Made by a program: the position numbers and the translations under genes. A model generated the notes under the pieces. It was not told the origin of the DNA, did not search any database, and was given only the letters and a program-made list of their open reading frames with translations. This document shows, in pieces, positions 31,849 to 58,665 of a stretch of DNA of 64,000 nucleotides. The DNA comes from Escherichia phage AV109: the sequence record OR352939.1; one strand, 5' to 3'. Each line of letters opens with the position of its first letter. Positions within the stretch are counted from its first letter, which is position 1.

Positions 31849-32211
31849 TTAAAAGAATTTAAATTTTTTCTTGGTTCGTTCATTAAAAGCTTGTTGTACT
31901 TGCATTGTAACACATTTTTCAACGTGTGGTGCAAGTTCTGCTTTTCTGTCCTGGTCAAGAACTGCAAAGTCCATTACGATTTTACCATCAACCCAGTCTA
32001 GTTTTGTAATATAGACTATATGATGGGAACCGTCTTCAAGTGTAATCAGAATCTCTTGAATGACATTTTCCATTGCTGAACGGATAATTTTAAGAGATTC
32101 ATTAAACACTCGTTCTTTGCGAATGTCCTCCCCTTCCGAAGAAGGGGATTCATCAACGATTTCTAGATTTAAATCATCGAGATTATTCATCGAAATCTTC
32201 CATTTCGTCAA
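31849..32211 (-). CDS. 40: gp40-like head assembly/vertex chaperone (by synteny)
   Basis: 120 aa between uvsX and 41 as T4 gene 40. Confidence 0.45.
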   Translation of the reverse strand: MTKWKISMNNLDDLNLEIVDESPSSEGEDIRKERVFNESLKIIRSAMENVIQEILITLEDGSHHIVYITKLDWVDGKIVMDFAVLDQDRKAELAPHVEKCVTMQVQQAFNERTKKKFKFF

Positions 32212-33355
32212 GGTCGTTTTCTATATCTGCTGCAGACGGAGCATCAGAAGTTTTAACCGGAACTTTAGTTGTTGCTTTGCAATTAATAAGGTCGTTAACA
32301 GCGTCATCAACTTCTTTAATAGAAGAGATAGCACCTAGTTTATATTTAGTTTCAATTGCATCTCGGAAAGGTTTGTGTTTAAACAAAGGTCCCCAGAATT
32401 CTACACAATCAGTAGCTTTAGCACGCCATGATTTTTCTTCACGAATCATTTCACCTGTTTCTTCGTCAAGGAATTCGCGAGCATACCAACCGGCTTTAGG
32501 CTTAACTACAAAACCAATTTCAGTTGCCATTTCTAACAAGCCACTGAATGGGTCAATACCGCCATCAAAATTAACCGTGATTGGGAAAGTAGATTTTTCT
32601 TTAACGGTGCGAGATTTTTCTGCTTTCAACGTGAAGTCATAACCGGTCAATTCTGTACCTTCTTTAACCTGACGTTTAGAGATAAAGAATACAGTGTTAG
32701 CAGAATAAAGAATACCTGTACCACCACCCATAATCTCTTTAGGATACAATCCGCCGATTTCCATTGCTGTATGGTTGATTGCAACACACGGAATATCTTT
32801 AATAGTCAGATAAGGAGTCACAATACGGAAAAGAGATTTAAGTGCCTTAGCACGAGACATATCACCTACAACTTTCTCGTTCAATGCATCTTCAGTTTCT
32901 TTCTTAGATGCAGTATTACCGATTGAATCGATAAAGATAATAACTTTATCACCCCGTTCAATCGCGTCAAGCTGATTAGTCATATCAACTTTAAGTTGTT
33001 CGACGGATTGAATCGGAGTATGAACTACACGGTCTAAATCAACACCCATTGAACGAAAATAAGATTCTGAAGCACCAAATTCTGAATCATAGAACAAACA
33101 AATTGCATCTTTATATTTCTTCATATATGCTGCAACCATGGTCAGTCCAAACAACGTTTTAAAGTGTTTAGAAGGAGCAGCAAAAATAGTCAAGCCTGAT
33201 TGCAATCCTGCATTCAGAGCACCACCTAGTGCAATATTCAACATTGGAATACGAGTAGGGACTTCATCACGATTATTAAACAGCTTAGACTTAGTCAAGT
33301 CTGCAGTCATTTTAGAAGTAGAAGCTTTAATCAGACGAGATTTTAAATCAGACAT
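32183..33355 (-). CDS. uvsX: UvsX recombinase (RecA-like)
   Basis: 390 aa; RecA-fold P-loop region (IFAAPSKHFKT) and T4 UvsX N-terminus MSDLKSRLIKASTSKMTA. Confidence 0.9.
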   Translation of the reverse strand: MSDLKSRLIKASTSKMTADLTKSKLFNNRDEVPTRIPMLNIALGGALNAGLQSGLTIFAAPSKHFKTLFGLTMVAAYMKKYKDAICLFYDSEFGASESYFRSMGVDLDRVVHTPIQSVEQLKVDMTNQLDAIERGDKVIIFIDSIGNTASKKETEDALNEKVVGDMSRAKALKSLFRIVTPYLTIKDIPCVAINHTAMEIGGLYPKEIMGGGTGILYSANTVFFISKRQVKEGTELTGYDFTLKAEKSRTVKEKSTFPITVNFDGGIDPFSGLLEMATEIGFVVKPKAGWYAREFLDEETGEMIREEKSWRAKATDCVEFWGPLFKHKPFRDAIETKYKLGAISSIKEVDDAVNDLINCKATTKVPVKTSDAPSAADIENDLDEMEDFDE

Positions 33356-33453
33356 TGTATTTTTCCATAGGCATCATTATATTTTACTCATGTTTAAAAG
33401 ATAAGATGATTATATACTAAGGGTTATACAGCATTTAAAACTTTAAATGGCTC

Positions 33454-34002
33454 TTAACGAGCCCATTTGATAATTTCTGTAATCAAATAATTACGTTCGC
33501 TTGCATTAAATCCTATAACTTTGTTAGCACCATCATGATTAAGTAATTGATACGTTTGGATTTTGTTATGAATTGCAAACTCTTCAAAATGTGAAATGAC
33601 TGTATTAAAACCGAATGAAGACAAAGTAATAAGGTCGTCTTCAAAACTTTCAGTCATTTCGTTACGTGTTAAAATAATTGTGAACACATCATGGTTTTGG
33701 CAAAGACGAACATAATCCTGTTCATAAACGTCAAGAACCGAGTCCGCATCTTGTCGAATACGTCCATAAACCCAGTTACTAATATATCCACGGTCTAACA
33801 GATAAATCTTAGTAGGGTCTAAATAATTCAACATCGTTTCGAAACAGCCAACTTCATTTCGAGACTTAACATCGAAACGTCCATCAACTGTTCGTTTAGG
33901 GAAATCAATTTTTACATATCTTTCACTAATTTCCATTATGTCATTAATGAAAGTTGTTTTACCAGCATTATCCGGTCCATCTACTAAAATAATTTTAGCC
34001 AT
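33454..34002 (-). CDS. P-loop kinase, thymidylate/dNMP-kinase-like
   Basis: 182 aa; Walker A GPDNAGKTT and DRG motif (LLDRGYISNWVYG) as in TMPK-family kinases; sits where T4 has segA/bgt. Confidence 0.5.
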   Translation of the reverse strand: MAKIILVDGPDNAGKTTFINDIMEISERYVKIDFPKRTVDGRFDVKSRNEVGCFETMLNYLDPTKIYLLDRGYISNWVYGRIRQDADSVLDVYEQDYVRLCQNHDVFTIILTRNEMTESFEDDLITLSSFGFNTVISHFEEFAIHNKIQTYQLLNHDGANKVIGFNASERNYLITEIIKWAR

Positions 34003-34003
34003 T

Positions 34004-34903
34004 TTATTCCTCGATTACGACATCTTCATATTTAGGTATATTATATGGTGAAGAAATTAAAGCATTAAAGTAGATGAACTCACCAAGACCTGGATGAAAT
34101 ACTTCTTCAGGATTTTCGAAATATTGAATCTTCGGACGTCCTTTAAGAATTTGATAGTACTCAGTTTTAGTTGGTTTAAAAATTCGAATCAACGCTTCTT
34201 CAGGATACTTATTTCTGTCAAAGCTATTATTTGGATCGGTTATATAAAGCGGTTGACCTAATTGAATTGCGCATTCAACAACTTGTTCAAAACGATAGCA
34301 TGGGTCACTAATTCGAAATGGATGAAAAATACCATCTAGATGAATAGGAGCCAAATCACCTACAAGACGCTGCATGATGGAAGGACGTATAACTTTCTGC
34401 GTTACGATAATCTTATTACCATCTGCACCTGCGTTAACCAGCACTTCTTTTTGACGTTCATTCAACACAGTTGTTTGGATTGAACGATTAACCGACAATA
34501 TGTCGGTTTTTAAGAATTCGTCAATATAAAAACGTGGTTTATTAGGGTCTGCGGTGATATTGAAATTGAATTCTACATCAAAAGCGCCGTCATATCCAGT
34601 GATATCTGTGATTAGAAAATCACAATCATAATAAGCAATTAATGAATCAACCACAAATTCATTTTCAGACCAGAAATATTTACGAGTGTTATACGCGTTA
34701 TCTTTATACCATAATGGAACAAACTTAAATTCTGGAAAAAGACGTTCGCATTCTTTAATATCAGATGCATTACGTGGATATGTAATCACATCACCCGGAT
34801 TAGCACGGTGCAAATGAAGTTGGAAGTTGCCATCCTTAAGGATAGCATACTGTCCAGTTTCATAAGACCGCATACTCAAGATAGGTACGCGGAAAATAGC
34901 CAT
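34004..34903 (-). CDS. Hypothetical protein in the bgt slot (candidate transferase)
   Basis: 299-aa ORF tightly packed between the P-loop kinase and the gene 42 homologue; no motif recognised. Confidence 0.45.
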   Translation of the reverse strand: MAIFRVPILSMRSYETGQYAILKDGNFQLHLHRANPGDVITYPRNASDIKECERLFPEFKFVPLWYKDNAYNTRKYFWSENEFVVDSLIAYYDCDFLITDITGYDGAFDVEFNFNITADPNKPRFYIDEFLKTDILSVNRSIQTTVLNERQKEVLVNAGADGNKIIVTQKVIRPSIMQRLVGDLAPIHLDGIFHPFRISDPCYRFEQVVECAIQLGQPLYITDPNNSFDRNKYPEEALIRIFKPTKTEYYQILKGRPKIQYFENPEEVFHPGLGEFIYFNALISSPYNIPKYEDVVIEE

Positions 34904-35619
34904 TAGTCAAGGAATCCTTTAACATAATCAAAATCACGTTCAAACACATGGGCACTTACCATGGTATGAGTATAATCACCAACTTCTACACCACATTCGT
35001 TAGCGATATAATGAAGTAATTTTCCTTGGAGATAAAAATCCAACTGCATAACAACAGCACAGTTCTGGGAACGCATATGACAGTGGGTATAAAGCTTACC
35101 GTCACGAATATAATAGGTCACTGAGTCAGTACATGGATATTCAAGCGTTTCGTCTGAATCAAGCAAAGCCTGATCAGAACTTTCTAGAATTTGGAACACA
35201 ACTCTTCGGGAGTTAGGCTTCTCTTTAAGTTCTTTTAGAAGAGCTGGTAATTGAGCCGCAATGCGAGGACCATAGAAAGTGTTGAAGTTCGCCGGCAAAA
35301 CATCTGATTTTGGTTTAGAAATAAATTTAGCGACATTAGGATATGCCTTAAACGCTTCTTCTGCGTTGGTACCACCAGAAATCATAAACTTCCAGAAGTC
35401 TTCGGCATATTCATAAGAGATGCGGTTAATACGTGGGTCGGTCATTTTGAATGATGATGGAGTGTCAACAACTACTGTCATAGACCCAATTTCATTACAA
35501 CGTCCAATACGAGAATCAGTTACGAATTCCGGGTTTTCTAAAATTTCACGATTGACTGCTTTAAATGCGGCTTGAAAATCTGCGGCTTTGATATATTTCA
35601 TTGTGTTATGTTTTCCCAT
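34903..35619 (-). CDS. 42: dCMP hydroxymethylase-like (thymidylate synthase family)
   Basis: 238 aa; TS-family active-site region (YPCTDSVTYYIRDGKLY, HMRSQN); position before gene 43 as T4 gene 42. Confidence 0.65.
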   Translation of the reverse strand: MGKHNTMKYIKAADFQAAFKAVNREILENPEFVTDSRIGRCNEIGSMTVVVDTPSSFKMTDPRINRISYEYAEDFWKFMISGGTNAEEAFKAYPNVAKFISKPKSDVLPANFNTFYGPRIAAQLPALLKELKEKPNSRRVVFQILESSDQALLDSDETLEYPCTDSVTYYIRDGKLYTHCHMRSQNCAVVMQLDFYLQGKLLHYIANECGVEVGDYTHTMVSAHVFERDFDYVKGFLD

Positions 35620-35661
35620 GTTTACCTCAATACAATTTATTATATACTCAATTTGTAAAGC

Positions 35662-35901
35662 TTATTTGAATTTCTTGGCAATGTTGATATAACGTAAAGC
35701 TTCAGTATCAATACTTCCAAGAACACTATGAAGAAATGCATCAGCGTAGTATTCCAATTGAACAGGTTCTTTAATCACTTTAGCCGCTTTGGTTTCAAAC
35801 AGGCCCATCAGGGCCTTTTTAAGAATTTGTTCGTTAGTGTTCAGTTTAATAGTCAAAATCTCTTCGTTAAGTTTATAATTAAAAGTTTTTCTAGAAATCA
35901 T
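35662..35901 (-). CDS. Hypothetical protein
   Basis: 79-aa ORF. Confidence 0.4.
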   Translation of the reverse strand: MISRKTFNYKLNEEILTIKLNTNEQILKKALMGLFETKAAKVIKEPVQLEYYADAFLHSVLGSIDTEALRYINIAKKFK

Positions 35902-37067
35902 TCCGGGTACCTCAAAGCGTCATCAGAGTTAGTTATATCAATAATAGATATAGAGTTTTCTGCTAACCCGTTTTTAGATAATTGACGTTTATAATATCTT
36001 TCACAATATGTACACGTCGTCCCGCAGATTTCATTAGCACAATCGAAATCTGGATGTCTGAACCACCTTTTTTCTAAAAAGCCATCTAACAAAGAGGTTT
36101 CAATATTTACTGTATGTGAAAACTCAGTTTCGTTTTCAAGAGTGAAAATGGTCTCTAAAGGCTTCCACAGTTCTAACAAATTACCTTCAAACTTTTCAGA
36201 AGCGTATGCTTCAAGAACTTTCAAAATGTAGTCTGTGCTACCTGTACGTCCTGAAACTTTGAATTGAGTGATACCAATATCATTATAAAGTTTCAAATCT
36301 TGAGGACGAACAAAACGAGTTCTCAACCAGTTAAATGGGTCTGTATCACGAGCTTTAATACAGTGCTGCATAGGATATCCGTTTAAGGATTTAGCATCAT
36401 CAGCTGTAACATCAGTACTATGGAAAATATAGCAAGAGTCACGATAGCTACAATGTGTTGTATACCCTTTACCAGCATTAGAACAGAACTCATTTACAAG
36501 AACTTCAAATATTATATTGTTCTTATTGCAAAACTCTGCTGCACGCTTCAGGAAAGAAACTGAACGGTTCTTATGAATTCCGCAGCAGACCTTTTTGATA
36601 TTATACTGGTCATGCAAGTATTTGATTTGAGTTACAGCATCGACATGTAGAATTGTTGAAACTTCAATCTCAATGTCTTTATTGACTTCACGAACAATTT
36701 CCATAACAACAGGGTTAGCGATAGTAATACGCCATACGCCTATTGACCAAAGATACTGAACATAATCCTGAATAGCTTTCTTCTTCCACTCAACTAGTTC
36801 TCTTTTTGAACCAGGATTTATCGTGTTGAGTGTATAGTTAAAGCAAATACCTAATTCGTTACAACGTTTAACGTAGTCTTCTAACATCTTTTTGTCAACG
36901 TCAGGAAGCCTAAAATCAGGTCTGGCTGCTACAAAAGCCATTTCTCTTGTAGAGCCATATACTTCGTTTATCAAGCTATTAGGATAGGTTTTATTGAGCT
37001 CTACGATTTTATCAAGAAGAGCTAAATCAAAATTCGTTCCGATTTTAAAAGTATTCATTTTTTGCAT
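35898..37067 (-). CDS. U32-peptidase-family-like protein with Cys clusters (putative Fe-S enzyme)
   Basis: 389 aa; blocks resembling the U32 family (ICFNYTLNTINP, EVLVNEFCSNAGKGYTTHCSY, FKVSGRTGS) plus C-terminal CANEICGTTCTYC; assignment from motif recall only. Confidence 0.35.
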   Translation of the reverse strand: MQKMNTFKIGTNFDLALLDKIVELNKTYPNSLINEVYGSTREMAFVAARPDFRLPDVDKKMLEDYVKRCNELGICFNYTLNTINPGSKRELVEWKKKAIQDYVQYLWSIGVWRITIANPVVMEIVREVNKDIEIEVSTILHVDAVTQIKYLHDQYNIKKVCCGIHKNRSVSFLKRAAEFCNKNNIIFEVLVNEFCSNAGKGYTTHCSYRDSCYIFHSTDVTADDAKSLNGYPMQHCIKARDTDPFNWLRTRFVRPQDLKLYNDIGITQFKVSGRTGSTDYILKVLEAYASEKFEGNLLELWKPLETIFTLENETEFSHTVNIETSLLDGFLEKRWFRHPDFDCANEICGTTCTYCERYYKRQLSKNGLAENSISIIDITNSDDALRYPE

Positions 37068-37113
37068 CTCGCGTTAATTGATGCGATGGTTTTTGCAGGT
37101 CTTACTTAAATTA

Positions 37114-37515
37114 TTATAGATTCGGTTTATACGATTTAAATGTTTCGAATTCGCCTTTATTCATAAGAGCTTTGAATTCGTCAGGACGCATAGCTTTGTC
37201 GTCGATAATCCAATCATATACTGGTTTATGTGTTAGCAAATTATGGTACTTCAAGCCAATGTTTGCCAAGTTCTGAATCAGACTTGGGAGAATGTCAATT
37301 GCTATACGACCAGGACCTACTGACTTCATACCGCGAGCAGTGTAAAGCGTTATGGTATGCCCTGCATCATACAGGGCATTAATGGCAGACACCATTTCGA
37401 CGTCTGGTTTGAAGTTCACGTAATCACGATTGTTATTCCACTCTGTTATACAATCATCGACATCAAAACAAAGATTAAGCATGTTTTCTACACGGTGCAT
37501 TAGATTCGTTCCCAT
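37114..37515 (-). CDS. HAD-superfamily phosphatase (KdsC-like small sugar-phosphate phosphatase)
   Basis: 133 aa; DxD motif I (CFDVDDCIT) near N-terminus. Confidence 0.5.
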   Translation of the reverse strand: MGTNLMHRVENMLNLCFDVDDCITEWNNNRDYVNFKPDVEMVSAINALYDAGHTITLYTARGMKSVGPGRIAIDILPSLIQNLANIGLKYHNLLTHKPVYDWIIDDKAMRPDEFKALMNKGEFETFKSYKPNL

Positions 37516-39185
37516 TGATGAGTGATATCGCCACCGATTGGACGATAGGAAACACCAGTTTCTTTATCAGTTAGTACCCATTTACCAGGATTTTTTGTAA
37601 TCAGAGTAGCCGTTACAGGTTCTGCTACGTCATAACTAATAGAGCCGTCCTGAAGTACACGGCCCATGTTACGTAATTGCTTAGTCAGAAGTTCCATACC
37701 TTTATAATATGCGGCTACCGCTTTAAGTGGATTATTCTTGAAATAACCACCTAATGCAATCCAGATAATTGCCACAGCCAAATGATGATATTCATTAAAC
37801 GAACTCAGCTTTCCATATTTGTAAACTAATGGATTGATGTTAATAGTCACATTACAAGTTGTTTCATCAATAGTAAACTGTCCCCAGGTCGGATTAGCAT
37901 TGAATTCATCATAACCTGAAACAGCATAAAGCACTTTAGCTTCATCATACAATTTTGGCCCGTAAATCTTGGTTTCACCAAAATATCCACGAGGGTCGAT
38001 AAATTTGACTTCGCCGTTATCAGTAATCATAGTATTACTGAAGTTCGGGTCACCATGAATAACAGAGTACTGTCCCTGAGAACGGTTATGATAACGAATA
38101 AGGTGTTCTAAAGCTTGTTTCAGCATTGGCTTCAGACGTCCAATCTTAGTGTAGTTCACATGTGTGATTTTACCAAATGAATCAATCAACGGTTGAATGC
38201 TTTCACAACGATCAATAACTTTCGTATAGAATTCTTTAGTGAAATCACGACGAACAGTTTCAGGACTTACAAAATAAGTGTCTGTGCTGAATTTCAGTGC
38301 ATCTAAAATTGCATCAACAATTTGTGGACGAGCAAGACTTGATTTGGATTTAATATATTCAAATGCCGGCTTACCTTTAATGCGTTCCATTTCAAAGTTA
38401 TTTTCATTAACAGAAACTAACTGAGGAACTGAATCTGATTTCACTTTAAGATACCATGAAATCTCATCTTTCTGAAGAGCTCGACCTTGTTCAGTTAATG
38501 CGAATTTAGTTACAGTTTCTTCACCAATTTCAACTGCATTAAAACTACGATTAAGTTCACGAACTTCATGAGCCTTTTCAAGTTTAGGCATATCACCAAG
38601 GTCGATGATATTCATAAGCTCTGATTTATTGAATGCGCCGCTGTAAAGGAATTCTACGAAATCACGTCCTTTGCAGTATTCATGAATTTCCTCATCGGTA
38701 GAACCCATGTAGAATTCCCAGTCTTTGAACTGGTAAATTCCCACAACATTACCACCTGTTGAACCTACGTTAGTGATATTTTCACCATCGAAATTATATC
38801 GACATTCGTCACCCTTAACATAGATTGCGTTAACATTCCAAGACCATGAACCAAAATCAGGAATAATATCACACCAGTTAACAATTACGTTATGGCCGTC
38901 TAAATCTTTGTGTAATTTAGCAAGAGCATAAGCAGAACCATACGCTTCATCGACTGTACGAATAGTCACATTGAACCCTTCTTGCTCACAATAAGCTCGA
39001 ACAGTTTCAGCAAATTTTGAATGAACTACTACAATAATTTCATCTGCGCCAAGGTCAGAATAAATTGTATACAAATTGCTCAGAATAGTGTCTTGTTTAT
39101 AGTTAACAAGCACCTTAGGAATATGGTGAGTAATTGGATATAAACGAGTTGCCAATCCAGCACCAAGAATAACAGCTTTTTTCAT
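37500..39185 (-). CDS. Bifunctional sugar-1-phosphate nucleotidyltransferase / sugar kinase (APH/choline-kinase-like C-terminal domain)
   Basis: 561 aa; N-terminal NTP-transferase signature (KAVILGAGLATRLYPITHHIPKVLV); C-terminal phosphotransferase motifs (HGDPNFSNTMI, KFIDPRGYFG). Confidence 0.6.
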   Translation of the reverse strand: MKKAVILGAGLATRLYPITHHIPKVLVNYKQDTILSNLYTIYSDLGADEIIVVVHSKFAETVRAYCEQEGFNVTIRTVDEAYGSAYALAKLHKDLDGHNVIVNWCDIIPDFGSWSWNVNAIYVKGDECRYNFDGENITNVGSTGGNVVGIYQFKDWEFYMGSTDEEIHEYCKGRDFVEFLYSGAFNKSELMNIIDLGDMPKLEKAHEVRELNRSFNAVEIGEETVTKFALTEQGRALQKDEISWYLKVKSDSVPQLVSVNENNFEMERIKGKPAFEYIKSKSSLARPQIVDAILDALKFSTDTYFVSPETVRRDFTKEFYTKVIDRCESIQPLIDSFGKITHVNYTKIGRLKPMLKQALEHLIRYHNRSQGQYSVIHGDPNFSNTMITDNGEVKFIDPRGYFGETKIYGPKLYDEAKVLYAVSGYDEFNANPTWGQFTIDETTCNVTININPLVYKYGKLSSFNEYHHLAVAIIWIALGGYFKNNPLKAVAAYYKGMELLTKQLRNMGRVLQDGSISYDVAEPVTATLITKNPGKWVLTDKETGVSYRPIGGDITHQWERI

Positions 39186-39212
39186 GTTGTGGTCCTCATT
39201 GGTAAGTAGGAG

Positions 39213-39240
39213 TATTGTACACTATTCTAGTTAAAGCATT
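39213..39240 (-). promoter_or_regulatory. Candidate MotA-dependent middle promoter (MotA box AATGCTTTA + TACAAT -10) upstream of the nucleotidyltransferase-kinase gene
   Basis: Minus strand reads AATGCTTTAA-N12/13-TACAAT, then GAGG RBS and ATG at 39185. Confidence 0.4.
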
Positions 39241-39370
39241 CATACTTTGCTTGTAGTCCAATCATAATCCATCCAATTACAAGTGTTGGAATCATTACCG
39301 GAGCCGTTAAGCTCCAGTAGATAGTCATGACAAGCATCAATAGTAAAAGTCCTATTGTTATTGCTTTCAT
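39227..39370 (-). CDS. Small membrane protein (about 47 aa)
   Basis: ATG 39370 overlapping stop of SIS gene (ATGA), GAGG RBS; translation MKAITIGLLLLMLVMTIYWSLTAPVMIPTLVIGWIMIGLQAKYECFN; T4 has membrane protein Imm in this interval. Confidence 0.3.
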   Translation of the reverse strand: MKAITIGLLLLMLVMTIYWSLTAPVMIPTLVIGWIMIGLQAKYECFN

Positions 39371-40002
39371 TGTTCGCCTCGTAACATGGCACCTAGTGCA
39401 CCGCCTGGATGGAACTTAAGGAAATCATTAGAGGTAAATCCACGTTCAGACGAAAGGTTGATAGCAAACGTATCGATAAGCGCTAACAACAATGTAGTGG
39501 ACATTGTCGGAGCTAAAGAGTTCTCGTCAACTTCTACCGCGATACCAGTACAGAACGTATAATCAAAAAGAGCTTCGTATTCTTGTGGAATGTCAGGGTT
39601 ACAATGTAACAGAATCTGTTTAACCTGAGGACGAATCATACGAAGATGTTTAGCAACACCTATCATTTCTTCAGTCTTACCAGAACGACTAATATGAATC
39701 AACACGTCATTAGGTGCAATAAATCCTGCGTCACCATGAGAATAATGCCCAGTGTTCAAATACATGCTAGGAATACCTAGTGAAGCAAATGTCTCGGAAG
39801 CTTTAGTTGCGATATTAGCATTCTTACCAACACCTGTAATAATTACCCGGCTTTCATAATTACTAAGTCCAGGGCGTCGAAGAGTTTCTAGAATAGCATT
39901 ATAACGAGCAGGGTTTTGACTAATTACTTTGGCCATAGCGGCCAAAGAAGAAGCTTGTTTTATGATTGCGTCAATAGCGATAGTAATAGGAGTAGTTTTC
40001 AT
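39367..40002 (-). CDS. SIS-domain sugar-phosphate isomerase, KpsF/GutQ-type (arabinose-5-phosphate isomerase-like), no CBS domains
   Basis: 211 aa; ITGVGKNANIATKASETFASLGIPSMYL, HGDAGFIAPNDVLIHISRSGKTEEM, LAPTMSTTLLLALID, FHPGGALG match the KpsF/GutQ SIS-domain pattern. Confidence 0.6.
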   Translation of the reverse strand: MKTTPITIAIDAIIKQASSLAAMAKVISQNPARYNAILETLRRPGLSNYESRVIITGVGKNANIATKASETFASLGIPSMYLNTGHYSHGDAGFIAPNDVLIHISRSGKTEEMIGVAKHLRMIRPQVKQILLHCNPDIPQEYEALFDYTFCTGIAVEVDENSLAPTMSTTLLLALIDTFAINLSSERGFTSNDFLKFHPGGALGAMLRGEQ

Positions 40003-40042
40003 ATTTCTCTCATTTAATTAGTTTACCGTCCATGGCATTATA

Positions 40043-42754
40043 TCAAAAATCGAACATATCGAACAGAGATGCTTTCTTCTCGTAATCGAGTTTCGCTGCT
40101 GATGTGAATCCTTCAAGTGGTTTAATAAATGTCTTCTCAAGGAGAACAGTGTAGTCCATCCAATGAAGTACGTCGTCTTTAATTAAATCTGTGATTTCAG
40201 TACCAGAAGGCCATGCGATACATTTATCACCGAATGGGTTTCCTTCACGTAAAGGCAGAACATATACTTTTTCACCTTCTACAACTTGTGGTGCATCAAT
40301 ATTACCTTTGATAGCTCGGTTATATGTCAGAATTCCACGAATATGAAACGGGCATTTAGGACCAGGGAATCCACCGACATCATATTTAGCAATGTTATTC
40401 GCAGAAGATACCGACGCGATGCTAATATAATTCAATTGACGGAATTCTTTTTCAAACTCTTTAAAATATTCTTGTAATGATTCTTCACCTTCTTGAAGCA
40501 TACGACGAATACATTCTTTAAGAGCTTTCTGTACTGCTTTAGGAGTCGAAGATTTCTGAGTCTCTAGACCCATGATTTTGAGTTTAGGCTCAGCATAACG
40601 AGTGCCTTCCATATCCCACACGTTTAATGCATAACGTTTCTTACCAGTCCAGAATCCACCAATACCTTTAGAACCGAGCGGAGGGCCAGCAATAGCTTCT
40701 CGGTCCATGAACATTAAGTGTTGTTTATTGTTCATGTATTCACACATTTCACGGAAACCTCTATCAATAGCTGGTTCCATACGTTCACGTGCAAACTTAT
40801 CTAAGAAGTCTACCCAATGGTTTGTATCACGGAATTTAGATTCACCAACCTTATCGATAATTTTATCAGCAGATACGTAAATAGAGTCTGTATCACCATA
40901 AAGAACGAAAGCTTCACCTTCTGTACCACAAACTTCATTCAGATATTCATTAACTTTACGTTCAATCCACTGTAAAGCCATTTGACCAAATGTTGTGATT
41001 GCAGTTGCATTACGCAAATCATAATAACGGAACCAAACGTTTCCAAGTGCACCATAAAGTGAGTTGATAAGCAATTTACGGTTAATTTGGGCAGTCATAC
41101 CCGCAACTTCAGTACGTTGAGCTCTAAACAACATTTCATTAAGAGATTTAGCAGACAACTTTTTAATCTTTTCTTTAATCTCATCGCTGAAGTCGAAACG
41201 ATAATCAACATCTAATGGTTCGTCAACAGAAAGATTAGGATTATGCAATGCCTCTTTAATTATTTCACCATTACGTTGAGCTGCAAGCATGTAACCTTTA
41301 TGTTCTTTACGTTGATTAAAGACCTTAGTGATTTCAGTTGGAACTACACCATCACGGTCTTTATAATACATCATGCCGTTAGGAGAACAACTGTACACAT
41401 CTGAAGGACGTTCAGCGATTGCGTTAATATAATCATGTAATGGAGCTACTTTAAACGTTCCTGCTATTGTTTCTGGGCTAATATTCACTTGGCGAATGAT
41501 GCTTGGATACAGAGATGTAAGGTCGAAACTCATTACATATTTGTATCGATTTGGAATAGGTTCCTTAACAAAAGCGCCAGGATAAGGTTGAACCGGGTGA
41601 GAACGACCTTGTGGAATCACCTTGTTCTGCTCTTTAAGGCTATTAAAAATAATAGCATCCCAAGTTTTAATTGGACTGAACACAGATTGAATCTGAATTT
41701 TAGCATAATAACCCATGTCCAAGCTCAAGTTGATGAACTGACGCTTAGAATCAATTTGCAATACACGATACACGTCGATAATGTTATAAGAAATATATCG
41801 TTGGTGATTGCTTTCACGAAGCTTAGAAATAGGGCCGTCATATTTCAGTTTACCAACGTTCAATTCAAATTCTGAAATGTAATCCAGAGAATACGACGGT
41901 TGATTGGTAAAAGAGAATTTTTTGTAAAGGTCAATGTAATCAAGAACAGAGATACCGAACAATGTAATGATTTCACGAGAACCATACATGTTTTCGATAA
42001 CTTTAACACGAGTTTTACGATGTGGCGATAAACGTTTCGCAGTAGATTCGCCAAAAATATTCTTGATTCGGTTATACACATATGGAATATCAAATGACTC
42101 AACGTTCCATCCAGTCAAAATGACAGGAGTTTTCTGTTGCCAGAAGTTGAGATATTCCATCAACAATTCTTTTTCGTTATCGAACGGCATATAAATGATT
42201 TTATCGATAATTTCAGATGGAACTTCATCACCGCCTTGTTCTTGAAGCTTAGCAGCGATTTCAATAGACCATTCTTCTACATTACCATACGGAGAATTCA
42301 ATAGATCAAATACGTAGAACCTGTCGTCAATTGAGTCATAATGGGTGATAGCATCAATAGGATGCTTTGCTTGTGCCGGCTCAGGGAACCCGTCCGGAGA
42401 TGTTACTTCGATGTCGAAGTTAGCCACACGAATTTTTGTATGGTCGTATTTGATTTCATAGTTATAAGTGTCAGACAAATACGCCAATTTGAAATCGTCC
42501 ATGCCAAGTGCTTCAAGTCCGATATCTTCCATGCGTTTAATCCATTGGGAGGCATCACGCATATTAGCGAACAACTTACGAGTACACGGCTTACCGTAGA
42601 TATCGAAATATTTCGTAGCCTGACTTTCCGGACAATGAGCAAACAGTGATGGTTTATATTCTACTTCACGAGTACGTTCACGGCCATTAGAATCGATGTA
42701 ACGTTCAAAAATTGAATCACCAATCTGTTCAACCGTTAAGTAAAATTCTTTCAT
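40043..42754 (-). CDS. 43: DNA polymerase gp43 (family B)
   Basis: 903 aa; exonuclease and polymerase motifs including YGDTDS; size as T4 gp43. Confidence 0.95.
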   Translation of the reverse strand: MKEFYLTVEQIGDSIFERYIDSNGRERTREVEYKPSLFAHCPESQATKYFDIYGKPCTRKLFANMRDASQWIKRMEDIGLEALGMDDFKLAYLSDTYNYEIKYDHTKIRVANFDIEVTSPDGFPEPAQAKHPIDAITHYDSIDDRFYVFDLLNSPYGNVEEWSIEIAAKLQEQGGDEVPSEIIDKIIYMPFDNEKELLMEYLNFWQQKTPVILTGWNVESFDIPYVYNRIKNIFGESTAKRLSPHRKTRVKVIENMYGSREIITLFGISVLDYIDLYKKFSFTNQPSYSLDYISEFELNVGKLKYDGPISKLRESNHQRYISYNIIDVYRVLQIDSKRQFINLSLDMGYYAKIQIQSVFSPIKTWDAIIFNSLKEQNKVIPQGRSHPVQPYPGAFVKEPIPNRYKYVMSFDLTSLYPSIIRQVNISPETIAGTFKVAPLHDYINAIAERPSDVYSCSPNGMMYYKDRDGVVPTEITKVFNQRKEHKGYMLAAQRNGEIIKEALHNPNLSVDEPLDVDYRFDFSDEIKEKIKKLSAKSLNEMLFRAQRTEVAGMTAQINRKLLINSLYGALGNVWFRYYDLRNATAITTFGQMALQWIERKVNEYLNEVCGTEGEAFVLYGDTDSIYVSADKIIDKVGESKFRDTNHWVDFLDKFARERMEPAIDRGFREMCEYMNNKQHLMFMDREAIAGPPLGSKGIGGFWTGKKRYALNVWDMEGTRYAEPKLKIMGLETQKSSTPKAVQKALKECIRRMLQEGEESLQEYFKEFEKEFRQLNYISIASVSSANNIAKYDVGGFPGPKCPFHIRGILTYNRAIKGNIDAPQVVEGEKVYVLPLREGNPFGDKCIAWPSGTEITDLIKDDVLHWMDYTVLLEKTFIKPLEGFTSAAKLDYEKKASLFDMFDF

Positions 42755-55569: not shown

Positions 55570-57383
55570 TGGTGTTTAACCCTATGCATTATTTCTTTAT
55601 TTTTACCGAGATTAAATCCGCGTTCGTTCGGATTTCCCAAATAACCGCATGTTCTTCTTATGGTGTTCATCTTTTTAGGATCAGTTTCTCCACAGATAGA
55701 ACAAACAAATCCGTTTTCAGTAGGAGTCATTTCATGGGTACTTCCACATGTAAAACATTTATCTACTGGCATATTAACACCAAAATAATCTAAATGCTGT
55801 GCAGCATAATCCCACACGGCCTCAAGACCTTTTAAGTTATTTTTCATATCAGGAAGTTCAACATAAGAAATGTGACCACCTGTCGCAATGAAATGATACG
55901 GCGCTTCACGAGAAATCTTTTCAAACGGAGTAATATTTTCTTCTACTGAAACGTGGAAACTGTTAGTGTACCAGCCTTTATCGGTAACATCTTTTACACT
56001 TCCATATTTTTCTGTATCAAGTTTACAGAAGCGATAACAAAGGTTTTCAGCAGGAGTAGAATACAAACTAAAAGCAAAACCAGTTCTTTCAGTCCACTGT
56101 TTAAGATGAGCATTCATTTTAGTTAAAATTTCTTGTCCAATATCACGACCGACAAGAATATTCAATTCATGAATACCGATGTATCCTAAAGACACTGAAC
56201 TTCTACCGTTTTTAAATAGCTCAATTATATCGTCATCAGGTTTAAGACGAACCCCGAATGCACCTTCTTGGTAAAGAATAGGAGCAACAGTCGCTTTAAC
56301 TCCTTTTAAGGAACTAATTCTACACATCAAAGCTTCAAAACACAGGTCCATTCGTTCATTGAATAATTCAACAAATTTCTGTTCATTGAACTGTGTTCCA
56401 ATATAAGAATCTAATGCGATACGAGGAAGATTCAGTGTTACAACGCCGAGATTATTACGACCGTCAAGAATTTCATTTCCAGTTGAATCTTTCCATACGC
56501 TCAAGAAACTACGGCAACCCATCGGAGAAACTGGAACTGAAGAACCGGTAATAGCTTTATTATTCTTAACTGAAATAATGTCAGGATACATTCTTTTGCT
56601 TGCACATTCTAACGCAAGTTGTTTAATATCATAGTTTGGATCATCTTTATAAAGATTAACACCTTCTTCAAAAAACATAACAAGCTTAGGGAAAATAGGA
56701 GTTATTCCATCACGTCCAAGGCCTTTAATGCGGTTTTTAAGAATTGCCTTCTGAATCATTCGTTCAGTCCAGTCAGTTCCCGTACCAAATGTAATTGTCA
56801 CAAAAGGCGTTTGTCCGTTTGAACTAAAGAGAGTGTTTACTTCATATTCATAAGCTTGGAATGCATCGTATACGTCTTTTTCTGTTTTAGATTGAGCATA
56901 ATTCAGAATGTCTGGTATTTGCCATTTTTCTGCATCTTCAACATGTTTAGCGTATGTGCGTTTAACATAAGGAGAAAGAACTTTATCGACATTCGCAAAT
57001 GTAGTTCCGCCATACTGGTGTGAAGCAACTTGTGCAGTAATTTGTGCCATAATTGCAGTAGCAACGCCAATAGATTTAGGCGTTTCAATTTGAGCATTGC
57101 CTAATTTAAATCCATTCTCAAGCATTCCTTTTAAATCTACTAAACAGCAATTAGTAAAAGGCAATGATATACTATAATCTAAATCGTGAAAATGAATTAA
57201 TCCGACATTATGAGCATTTACAATATGGCTCGGAAGAATACTACAAGCGATATGTTTAGAAACAATACCGGCCATTAAATCTCTTTTTGTTGGAAAGACA
57301 CGAGAATCTTTGTTGGCATTTTCGGTATTTAATTCTTTATCTTTATTTGAAATAAAATTTAAAACATCTTTCTCTAAAGACAT
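55566..57383 (-). CDS. nrdD: Anaerobic ribonucleoside-triphosphate reductase NrdD, uninterrupted
   Basis: 605 aa continuous ORF; C-terminal glycyl-radical motif RRTCGYLG and zinc ribbon CFTCGSTHE...CSICG. Confidence 0.9.
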   Translation of the reverse strand: MSLEKDVLNFISNKDKELNTENANKDSRVFPTKRDLMAGIVSKHIACSILPSHIVNAHNVGLIHFHDLDYSISLPFTNCCLVDLKGMLENGFKLGNAQIETPKSIGVATAIMAQITAQVASHQYGGTTFANVDKVLSPYVKRTYAKHVEDAEKWQIPDILNYAQSKTEKDVYDAFQAYEYEVNTLFSSNGQTPFVTITFGTGTDWTERMIQKAILKNRIKGLGRDGITPIFPKLVMFFEEGVNLYKDDPNYDIKQLALECASKRMYPDIISVKNNKAITGSSVPVSPMGCRSFLSVWKDSTGNEILDGRNNLGVVTLNLPRIALDSYIGTQFNEQKFVELFNERMDLCFEALMCRISSLKGVKATVAPILYQEGAFGVRLKPDDDIIELFKNGRSSVSLGYIGIHELNILVGRDIGQEILTKMNAHLKQWTERTGFAFSLYSTPAENLCYRFCKLDTEKYGSVKDVTDKGWYTNSFHVSVEENITPFEKISREAPYHFIATGGHISYVELPDMKNNLKGLEAVWDYAAQHLDYFGVNMPVDKCFTCGSTHEMTPTENGFVCSICGETDPKKMNTIRRTCGYLGNPNERGFNLGKNKEIMHRVKHQ

Positions 57384-58195
57384 AATTCTAATTTATCCTT
57401 TTGAAATTCTTCGTCTAAATATGGGTTCCAACCCATTTTAAACCTTTTGATGAAATTATCAATTCTAAATTTCGGTAAATTTAACTCCGCAAAAATAGAT
57501 GATTTACTTTTAAAATCTGGACCTAAATAATCATATAAAATTTCTGCGTATTTTAACCATAATATATAAGTACCAGATTTAATTGCGTTCGGAGTTTTCC
57601 AAGGTTTTACACCATACATCGGATTTCCACTTCCTTTATGCCTGATAGAAGATGAAATTCCAATTTTAATTTTAGCTTCCTTTGTATGCGAAAATCCACG
57701 ATGCGGATTTTCTTTCCAGTATTTTTTAGCAGCTTCTGATATTTTCTTTCTGGCTAAATTAGTATGATGCTTTCCATAAAATCCATGATTTTTGCCTTTA
57801 TTACGATTTCTTTTAATCATGGTTATTGATTGCTTTTCTCTAGTTTCTTTAGAAGGAGAAATACCATATGTCGTAAATTTGCCATCAGCATATGCTAAAT
57901 TAAAATACTCTTTATTCCATACATCTTTTTCTATATTCTTTTGAAATTCAGCTTCAATGCTAGTTATTTGTTCATCTCCGACTAATTGAAAATATAATAT
58001 TTCAACTTTCGGCGTTTCTTTCAATAAGGCTTTTTGAAATTCGGAAGATGACGAAGACGAATAATAAAATTTACCATTTTTATCAATAATATTCGTTCCA
58101 TCAAAAGTGCAATTGGTTTTACTTCCAATGTAATAATATGGTGGGGTTTTAGCATTAATTCTATTAATAAATGATAGTTTATATACTACATTCAT
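57374..58195 (-). CDS. GIY-YIG-like homing endonuclease (Seg-like)
   Basis: 273 aa; N-terminal VVYKLSFINRINAKTPPYYYIGSK; paralogue of 45493..46392; inserted between nrdD and gene 49. Confidence 0.5.
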   Translation of the reverse strand: MNVVYKLSFINRINAKTPPYYYIGSKTNCTFDGTNIIDKNGKFYYSSSSSSEFQKALLKETPKVEILYFQLVGDEQITSIEAEFQKNIEKDVWNKEYFNLAYADGKFTTYGISPSKETREKQSITMIKRNRNKGKNHGFYGKHHTNLARKKISEAAKKYWKENPHRGFSHTKEAKIKIGISSSIRHKGSGNPMYGVKPWKTPNAIKSGTYILWLKYAEILYDYLGPDFKSKSSIFAELNLPKFRIDNFIKRFKMGWNPYLDEEFQKDKLELCL

Positions 58196-58665
58196 TTTAA
58201 ACTCTTTCTAAGCTGCTTTTTGAATGAAGCTATTAATTGTGTTTTAGTATCAGATTCAGTATATTCAAATCCTCTTTGAAGCATCTCAGCCATCATTTCC
58301 TCTTTACCTAGTCTTGAGAACTCTTTAGTTTTGTCTGGAACAAAATTAGGATGGATATTATTATCAGAATAATCTTGTTTCAAATAAGCAAGAAGAGCTT
58401 CAAGCCATTCTAAGTAGTCAACGTTTTGACCTTTCAAACCGGAACGGTTGAACTTATGCTTCATTTGACCTTCTGCTGCGTTGCACAGATTACAGAGTAA
58501 TCCACGAACTCTACCGGCTTTTGGCCCGTTTAATTCATGGTCGTGGTCAAGATGGTTACCTTGAACATCAGGGTCTAATTCACGGTGGCAAATAGGACAC
58601 TTACCATTCTGTGCATCATAAAATTTTTGTTTTTCTTCTTTATATTTTGCGCCTGATAATAACAT
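58192..58665 (-). CDS. 49: Endonuclease VII (Holliday junction resolvase) gp49
   Basis: 157 aa; near-identical to recalled T4 endo VII (KYKEEKQKFYDAQNGKC.IC.REL.PDVQ.NHLDHDHELNGPKAG.VRGLLCNLCNAAEG). Confidence 0.92.
   Translation of the reverse strand: MLLSGAKYKEEKQKFYDAQNGKCPICHRELDPDVQGNHLDHDHELNGPKAGRVRGLLCNLCNAAEGQMKHKFNRSGLKGQNVDYLEWLEALLAYLKQDYSDNNIHPNFVPDKTKEFSRLGKEEMMAEMLQRGFEYTESDTKTQLIASFKKQLRKSLK

Follow-up and report, generated by a model that had tools for sequence, protein, structure and literature searches.

Introduction

What does a protein labeled as a peptidase do inside a phage DNA-modification gene cluster? This question is raised by Escherichia phage AV109 (sequence record OR352939.1), in which a 389-amino-acid (aa) protein of the Peptidase_U32 (U32) family is encoded between the base-modifying and the sugar genes. 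Herein, a 64,000-nucleotide stretch of this genome (64 kb; the window) was compared with related genomes. The window belongs to an RB69-type T4-like phage of the genus Mosigvirus, and the U32 protein is the ortholog of RB69 gp50, with 99.5% identity to RB69p050 (annotated as "peptidase") and 100% identity to the vB_EcoM_G2469 protein. On comparative genomics, gene neighborhood and homology, we lean toward reading gp50 as an oxygen (O2)-independent, prephenate-dependent C5-hydroxylase of deoxycytidine monophosphate (dCMP). Its U32 membership, conserved cysteines, fold and gene linkages come directly out of the analysis; from them we infer the substrate, the oxygen donor, the oxygen independence and the action on a free nucleotide.

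The DNA chemistry of RB69 has been published (Lee et al., NAR 2026, PMC13326640). RB69 gp48, a thymidylate-synthase homolog, was experimentally shown to make 5-hydroxy-dCMP (5hodCMP); it binds flavin, and 18O2 labeling traced the oxygen atom to O2. RB69 DNA contains mono- and di-arabinosylated 5-hydroxycytosine (5hoC) and no hydroxymethylcytosine. Cytosine is fully replaced by the modified base, only modified cytidines are found in the DNA, and nucleotide-pool enzymes underlie the pathway. The sugar genes lead from ribulose-5-phosphate to UDP-arabinofuranose. In that paper gp50 is confined to a table, where it is labeled "sugar or heterocycle reductase" and given a structural match to 5D88, without experiments; the discussion mentions tRNA hydroxylation pathways without tying them to gp50.

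Characterized U32 enzymes have been linked to hydroxylation. Formation of 5-hydroxycytidine in rRNA requires RlhA, which depends on prephenate and iron-sulfur (Fe-S) clusters (PMC5727448). 5-Hydroxyuridine (ho5U) is made redundantly, by TrhP (U32, prephenate) or by TrhO (O2) (PMC6599085). In the UbiU/UbiV pathway, prephenate donates the oxygen (PMC10990095).

The gene with its U32 label (in databases) and the DNA modification (in print) are thus already known. The full-text literature search returned no paper tying U32 or prephenate to phage 5hoC; the Thanatos phage paper states that it has no hypothesis on where the hydroxyl group comes from, and the LC53 genome paper does not mention the U32 and chorismate mutase genes. 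Relative to the searchable literature, the functional reading, the linkage to chorismate mutase and DAHP synthase across the family, and the apparent displacement of the thymidylate-synthase-type hydroxylase appear to be new.

The phage protein is a conserved U32 family member with a predicted TIM barrel

A reading made from the sequence alone (the sequence-only reading) had recognized U32-like blocks and a C-terminal cysteine cluster, all of which are found in the 389-aa translation: ICFNYTLNTINP at residues 74-85, EVLVNEFCSNAGKGYTTHCSY at residues 188-208, FKVSGRTGS at residues 269-277, and C343-x4-C348-x3-C352-x2-C355. The family assignment was confirmed by a match to Pfam PF01136 (Peptidase_U32) over residues 97-289, with an E value of 7.4e-11 and 42.2 bits, above the gathering cut-off of 22.4. 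The ortholog of Serratia phage LC53 also matches this model. Profile-profile comparison (hhalign) of 61 phage family members with UbiU, UbiV, RlhA and TrhP of E. coli gave a probability of 96.4% (E 1.3e-9), in agreement with the proposed relationship. The predicted structure is a triose-phosphate isomerase (TIM) barrel, as had been expected, and its closest structural match is the U32 structure 5D88 (Mk0906 of Methanopyrus kandleri). Mk0906 shares the TIM-barrel fold predicted for the phage protein; it differs in its 14% identity, its 247 residues, and the absence of a C-terminal cysteine domain. The second Foldseek match is the flavoprotein MTHFR, a generic TIM barrel. PDB sequence searches with the 389-aa protein and with the family profile gave no relevant match. 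The extra Pfam domains DUF3656 and the U32 C-terminal domain were not found in the 389-aa protein. Neither thymidylate-synthase similarity nor the D169N/N177D signature was found in it; that role is held by the neighbor at 34903-35619.

The U32 gene is real and strongly constrained. It is present in 221 phage genomes, every one with at least 80% amino-acid identity, and the hosts are all Enterobacterales or Shewanella. It is the most highly conserved gene of the cluster: between the window and LC53 the U32 proteins are 83% identical, and the transferase, the kinase and most sugar genes are 60-73% identical.

Two groups of cysteines are conserved

Ten cysteines are conserved in 121 close homologs, nine of them invariant and C180 in 98%. 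The invariant set includes C195, C206, C212 and C236, which form the core motif of a putative [4Fe-4S] site (Table 1). Among 133 distant representatives, mutually more than 50% different, C206 and C236 are kept in 133/133 and C195 in 132/133, and the C212 position is Cys or His. Phage C206, C212 and C236 are paired by hhalign with the UbiU cluster ligands C169, C176 and C232.

The C-terminal four cysteines are kept in 100% of the 121 close homologs and in about 94% of the 133 wider-family representatives, with variable spacing. The alignment with the E. coli U32 proteins does not extend to this cluster, which is a hallmark of the phage U32 family and a putative metal or Fe-S site. A radical-SAM site at C348-x3-C352-x2-C355 was considered and rejected: there is no Radical_SAM Pfam match, C343 is a fourth conserved cysteine, and the exact spacing occurs in only 26/133 representatives.

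The U32 gene is linked to prephenate-making enzymes

The strongest clue to U32 function is the linkage to chorismate mutase and DAHP synthase. It had escaped the sequence-only reading because such neighbors are seen only in related genomes. Chorismate mutase makes prephenate. A type II chorismate mutase (Pfam CM_2) overlaps the U32 3' end in Serratia phage LC53 (E 1.7e-11) and Klebsiella phage KLB31 (E 1.3e-9). When 50,697 phage records were searched, a chorismate mutase homolog was found in 48 genomes, in 48/48 of them between the U32 and the thymidylate-synthase-homolog genes; it is present in 15 of the 19 T4-like loci examined in detail.

A second line of evidence comes from more distant relatives. 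The next-closest U32 proteins are 45-58% identical, about 360 aa long, and all metagenomic. The phage-family profile, searched against 1.84 billion representatives, gave 481 clusters at E<=1e-30, a sizeable family apart from the cellular UbiU/UbiV/TrhP/RlhA groups. From 47 IMG/VR loci, 38 non-T4 loci were analyzed, representing 29 lineages at 90% U32 identity, each viewed for up to 10 kb on both sides of the U32 gene. Every examined context is phage-like, with DnaE- or PolA-type polymerases and primase, SSB, RecA, terminase, holin and UDG-like genes.

DAHP synthase, chorismate mutase, or a fusion of the two lies within about 1.7 kb of U32 in 13/38 non-T4 loci (8/29 lineages), in phages whose U32 proteins show 45-56% identity. 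The fusion stands beside U32 in five loci (L047 7302-8357; L044, L045, L049, L058), a standalone chorismate mutase in six (L050, L052, L055, L056, L059, L061), and DAHP synthase alone in two (L010, L033). Deposited phage genomes hardly ever carry DAHP synthase, and chorismate mutase is similarly rare outside U32 loci. The DAHP_synth_1 neighbors were also considered as KDO8P synthase of a sugar branch; this was rejected on NCBIfam scores of 237 bits for DAHP synthase versus 63 for KDO8P synthase, and some are fused to chorismate mutase. In all, three independent gene arrangements tie the U32 family to prephenate-making enzymes.

In the window, the slot next to the place where other phages have chorismate mutase is occupied by ORF049, an open reading frame (ORF) of 79 aa without cysteine that is present in 162 phage records. 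A single-sequence model predicts a two-helix hairpin with a predicted local distance difference test (pLDDT) score of 72. The ORF is apparently frameshifted (two BLAST pieces) in HY126, AV113 and ECCR664. A hidden chorismate mutase in ORF049 was rejected: BLASTP gave E 16, Pfam and NCBIfam gave nothing, hhalign gave a probability of 0.6%, and ORF049 coexists beside a true mutase in Yersinia and Pectobacterium phages.

In most lineages U32 appears to replace the O2-dependent hydroxylase

The non-T4 loci carry the rest of the pathway in part. Homologs were found near U32 for the RB69 DNA transferase in 27/38 loci (often overlapping the U32 start), the gp45-type kinase in 30/38, the sugar kinase/nucleotidyltransferase in 17/38 and the SIS isomerase in 10/38. 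A 5hodCMP-synthase-type thymidylate-synthase homolog was found within the 10-kb flanks in 0/38. The lone thymidylate-synthase gene among these loci (L035) is canonical, with D169 and N177 kept. One replication module, visible whole from the lysis genes to the terminase (L014), holds no thymidylate-synthase gene, and Pfam annotations on six independent contigs are in keeping with these counts. In most lineages the U32 protein seems to take the place of the RB69 O2-dependent hydroxylase, beside a transferase needing a 5-hydroxyl acceptor and beside nucleotide-pool enzymes. The neighbors also include MazG/dUTPase-like, dCMP-deaminase-like and kinase genes, and therefore a nucleotide-level step is indicated. 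The simplest reading of these arrangements is that the U32 family would hydroxylate C5 of a pyrimidine deoxynucleotide, prephenate-dependently and without oxygen.

Two variant arrangements were observed. In one lineage, a radical-SAM ORF of 343 aa lies between the kinase and the transferase-U32 pair (L012 5980-7011; L013 549-1580). On very large phage-like contigs (up to 466 kb), U32 directly follows a dCMP-deaminase-family gene (L006 7447-8004; L007 7504-7929) and lies near thymidylate-kinase and UDG-like genes, and no transferase is detectable. With the latter arrangement the end product may be another one, for example an unglycosylated base or a derivative of 5-hydroxyuracil.

Host distribution and oxygen

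Acinetobacter is a strict aerobe. In 57/57 Acinetobacter phages with the transferase and kinase genes the U32 gene is absent, versus its presence in the 221 phages of Enterobacterales and Shewanella. This distribution fits an O2-independent role. The window itself contains an O2-requiring synthase and, in contrast, the anaerobic ribonucleotide reductase NrdD/NrdG (Table 1); the phage is therefore equipped for deoxynucleotide synthesis without oxygen. The reductases NrdAB and NrdDG of the phage form an aerobic/anaerobic pair that parallels the proposed pairing of the two hydroxylases.

The same distribution bears on the sugar. Tailoring of the sugar by the U32 protein, which had been suggested from the sequence, is unlikely, since Acinetobacter and Dhakavirus phages have the arabinose genes without U32, and many non-T4 phages pair U32 with the transferase without sugar-nucleotide genes. 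Tri-arabinosylated 5hoC is likewise made by Acinetobacter phage DLP3, for which the gene table of PMC13326640 has no U32 entry.

Proposed pathway

In the proposed pathway, the phage dCTPase would convert dCTP to dCMP. The U32 enzyme would then oxidize the dCMP ring via its Fe-S cluster or clusters, transferring the hydroxyl of prephenate, and the products would be 5-hydroxy-dCMP, phenylpyruvate and CO2. Nucleotide kinases would raise 5-hydroxy-dCMP to the triphosphate for incorporation by the polymerase, and the adjacent transferases would attach arabinose at the 5-hydroxyl. The window has no chorismate mutase of its own, and therefore the prephenate would come from PheA/TyrA of the host. In RB69-type phages, the U32 protein would be the anaerobic counterpart of the 5hodCMP synthase, which depends on flavin and O2, and the phage could replicate in air as well as in the anoxic gut. 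Many uncultivated non-T4 phages would have no hydroxylase other than the U32 protein.

These comparisons change several earlier expectations. The neighbor at 34903-35619 had been taken for a dCMP hydroxymethylase; its product is 98.7% identical to RB69 gp48 and carries the D169N signature "RSQN". An oxidation of the pyrimidine by the U32 protein had also been suggested. C5 oxidation is indeed the best-supported reading; it would probably yield 5hodCMP, which the neighboring enzyme also makes, by a route that needs no oxygen. Neither a new chemistry for T-even phage DNA nor an unexpected nucleoside mass is to be expected, because arabinosyl-5-hydroxycytosine is already known for RB69-type Mosigvirus DNA.

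A broader proposal is plausible and is held with less confidence than the reading of gp50 itself. The phage-restricted U32 branch may be the first of its family to act on a free deoxynucleotide, and many uncultivated phages of anoxic habitats may owe their 5-hydroxypyrimidine DNA to it alone. With their DAHP synthase and chorismate mutase, such phages may redirect the host shikimate pathway to prephenate, and RB69-type phages may keep both hydroxylases.

Evidence against the proposal and alternative explanations

Several observations weigh against a prephenate-dependent dCMP hydroxylase. We know of no U32 enzyme that uses a free nucleotide as substrate; those of RlhA and TrhP are RNA polymers. 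The 389-aa protein fails all NCBIfam equivalog models, and its sole match, UbiU, scores 18.4 bits versus a cut-off of 440. For the four-cysteine site that the sequence-only reading had proposed to look for, three UbiU ligands are aligned with phage cysteines; the fourth, UbiU C193, has no aligned partner, and the conserved C195 lies 10 residues upstream. Chorismate mutase was not found in Mosigviruses, including the window. A thymidylate-synthase homolog may lie elsewhere in the non-T4 genomes, beyond the flanks viewed. The Acinetobacter correlation represents few independent lineages. About 70 Enterobacterales phages in total have the pathway and no U32 gene, among them Dhakaviruses of E. coli such as JS98. 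The JS98 cluster (L004, NC_010105.1 17573-33243) has the kinase/nucleotidyltransferase, phosphatase, kinase, 5hodCMP-synthase homolog and transferase, and no U32 gene, chorismate mutase or arabinose-5-phosphate isomerase. The Dhakaviruses indicate that the U32 gene is accessory and not universally needed in facultative anaerobes. Finally, U32 enzymes had not been reconstituted in vitro as of the 2024 PNAS paper, in which prephenate-dependent hydroxylation in vitro is still undemonstrated for UbiU/V, TrhP and RlhA (PMC10990095).

Hydroxylation of a polymer, be it the cytosines of freshly replicated phage DNA or a tRNA or rRNA of host or phage, is the alternative that survives best, and it is unlikely. 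The characterized U32 systems for pyrimidine hydroxylation all act on RNA polymers, and the prephenate supply would fit a polymer substrate equally well. However, the RB69 base replaces cytosine fully, in a pathway built on nucleotide-pool enzymes. An RNA target is further countered by the non-T4 loci, in which U32 sits with dCTPase/dUTPase-like, dCMP-deaminase-like and nucleotide-kinase genes and the DNA transferase. Moreover, Pfam recognizes no nucleic-acid-binding extension of the RlhA DUF3656 or U32 C-terminal-domain type.

Slightly less probable is a redox helper. As an Fe-S reductase, it could return the flavin of the synthase to its reduced state; alternatively, it could act on the pentose or the base, in line with the label "sugar or heterocycle reductase" in PMC13326640 Table 1. 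The two conserved cysteine clusters, the MTHFR match and the position of the U32 gene between sugar and base genes would all suit such a role. The distribution argues otherwise: 38/38 non-T4 loci have U32 without a nearby 5hodCMP-synthase-type gene, so the U32 protein cannot be merely the partner of the synthase, and the DLP3-type and Dhakavirus clusters make arabinosyl-5hoC without U32. Nor would a reductase account for the recurrence of chorismate mutase and DAHP synthase genes beside U32.

A prephenate-dependent hydroxylase of another small molecule (dUMP, or another position or metabolite), feeding a second, minor modification, is rated as more doubtful again. Some relatives adjoin dCMP-deaminase-like or dUTPase genes, which make dUMP, and there are family members without a linked transferase (L006, L007, L067). 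Against this, the conserved partner of U32 is a 5hoC transferase homolog, and the modified cytidines are the only ones in RB69 DNA. The collagenase-like protease of GenBank and PHROGs is very improbable: only database labels speak for it, the characterized U32 members are tied to hydroxylation (the name "peptidase" being historical), and the protein has invariant Fe-S-type cysteines in a nucleotide-metabolism context.

Comparison with known systems and significance

For the proposed dCMP hydroxylase, a close functional model is RlhA (E. coli YdcP, the 23S rRNA 5-hydroxycytidine-2501 synthase). Both have the U32 domain and conserved cysteines, and the target proposed for the phage enzyme, cytosine C5, is the same atom. 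RlhA differs in being a 653-aa protein with DUF3656 that acts on the ribosome, whereas the phage protein has 389 aa, aligns with it at profile level only, bears the extra C-terminal four-cysteine cluster, and would use a free deoxynucleotide.

The proposed pairing of hydroxylases resembles TrhP/TrhO and UbiU-UbiV versus UbiI/H/F, in which an O2-dependent enzyme and a U32 prephenate enzyme give one product, and the pathway works with and without oxygen. Those systems are cellular and act on tRNA or a lipid, and UbiU/V is a heterodimer with the helper UbiT, in contrast to the single U32 gene in the window. The O2-dependent partner also differs, being a flavin-binding thymidylate-synthase homolog and not a rhodanese (TrhO) or a classical flavin monooxygenase (UbiI/H/F). 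RB69 gp48, like the 5hodCMP synthase of HY126, makes the product proposed for the U32 enzyme, and the two genes are two ORFs apart in the cluster. Their folds, however, are unrelated, as are the flavin cofactor and O2 source of gp48, whose function is known by experiment, whereas that of the U32 protein is deduced.

The T4 gp42 dCMP hydroxymethylase pathway has the same outline of dCTPase, C5-modifying enzyme, deoxynucleoside monophosphate kinase and DNA glycosyltransferase; non-T4 loci bring together MazG/dUTPase-like, U32, kinase and transferase genes. T4 gp42 is unlike the proposed U32 Fe-S enzyme in its folate-dependent thymidylate-synthase fold, and its sugar is linked through a hydroxymethyl group, whereas that of the phage DNA is ether-linked.

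If the reading of gp50 as a prephenate-dependent hydroxylase is true, it would account for the anoxic replication of 5-hydroxycytosine-requiring phages, which is beyond the reach of the O2-dependent synthase. The phage chorismate mutase and DAHP synthase would be explained, and aromatic amino-acid metabolism would be tied to viral DNA hypermodification. Phage DNA modification would have recruited two unrelated folds for one and the same step. For a first in vitro prephenate-dependent U32 hydroxylation, the phage protein would provide a soluble enzyme whose substrate is a small molecule. Mosigviruses are used in gut-directed phage therapy, and their performance in anoxia relative to the U32-less Dhakaviruses could hinge on this enzyme.

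Organization of the window

The gene order at the locus (Table 1) agrees with the earlier placement of the U32 gene inside a DNA-modification cluster.

Table 1 Features of the U32 gene, its cluster, and other genes of the AV109 window.
Feature	Position	Strand	Remarks
U32-family protein, 389 aa, RB69 gp50 ortholog	35898-37067	(-)	PHROG 5757 "peptidase"; ATG start
Pfam Peptidase_U32 domain match	36201-36779	(-)	Residues 97-289
Core cysteine motif C195-x10-C206-x5-C212-x23-C236	36360-36485	(-)	Putative [4Fe-4S] site of U32 enzymes
C-terminal cluster C343-x4-C348-x3-C352-x2-C355	36003-36041	(-)	Putative second metal or Fe-S site
uvsX	32183-33355	(-)	
Thymidylate-kinase-like nucleotide kinase, RB69 gp45 ortholog	33454-34002	(-)	PHROG 761
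DNA 5hoC arabinosyltransferase 1, 299 aa, RB69 gp46:47 ortholog	34004-34903	(-)	Intact; PMC13326640 Table 1
Thymidylate-synthase homolog, flavin-/O2-dependent 5-hydroxy-dCMP synthase, RB69 gp48 ortholog	34903-35619	(-)	Pfam Thymidylat_synt
79-aa ORF, RB69 ORF049	35662-35901	(-)	PHROG 8601; start overlaps U32 stop by 4 nt (ATGA)
HAD-type sugar phosphatase, RB69 gp51, AfhF-like	37114-37515	(-)	PMC13326640
Bifunctional sugar kinase and nucleotidyltransferase, 561 aa, RB69 gp52:53, AfhE-like	37500-39185	(-)	Intact; Pfam NTP_transferase and kinase-like matches; PMC13326640
SIS-domain arabinose-5-phosphate isomerase, RB69 gp55	39367-40002	(-)	Pfam SIS
DNA polymerase gp43	40043-42754	(-)	
NrdG, radical-SAM activase of NrdD, 156 aa	55099-55569	(-)	Pfam Fer4_12 and Radical_SAM
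Anaerobic ribonucleotide reductase NrdD, 605 aa	55566-57383	(-)	Pfam NRDD 568 bits

No second U32 paralog (UbiV-like partner), chorismate mutase or DAHP synthase was found in the 64-kb window. A scan of 33300-40200 for promoters and terminators was at chance level (23 found versus 27.8 expected). The transferase and the kinase/nucleotidyltransferase are single intact ORFs here, and both are split in the RB69 reference record (gp46/47 and gp52/53). The published explanation of these splits as sequencing errors agrees with the intact ORFs.

One further ORF was observed outside the cluster. It encodes 273 aa with a NUMOD3 motif (homing-endonuclease-like) at 57374-58195 (-), flanked by nrdD on one side and the endonuclease VII gene (58192-58665) on the other. 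A comparable NUMOD3 ORF is found in Serratia phage LC53 (L002 5352-5990), between the HAD phosphatase and U32 genes.

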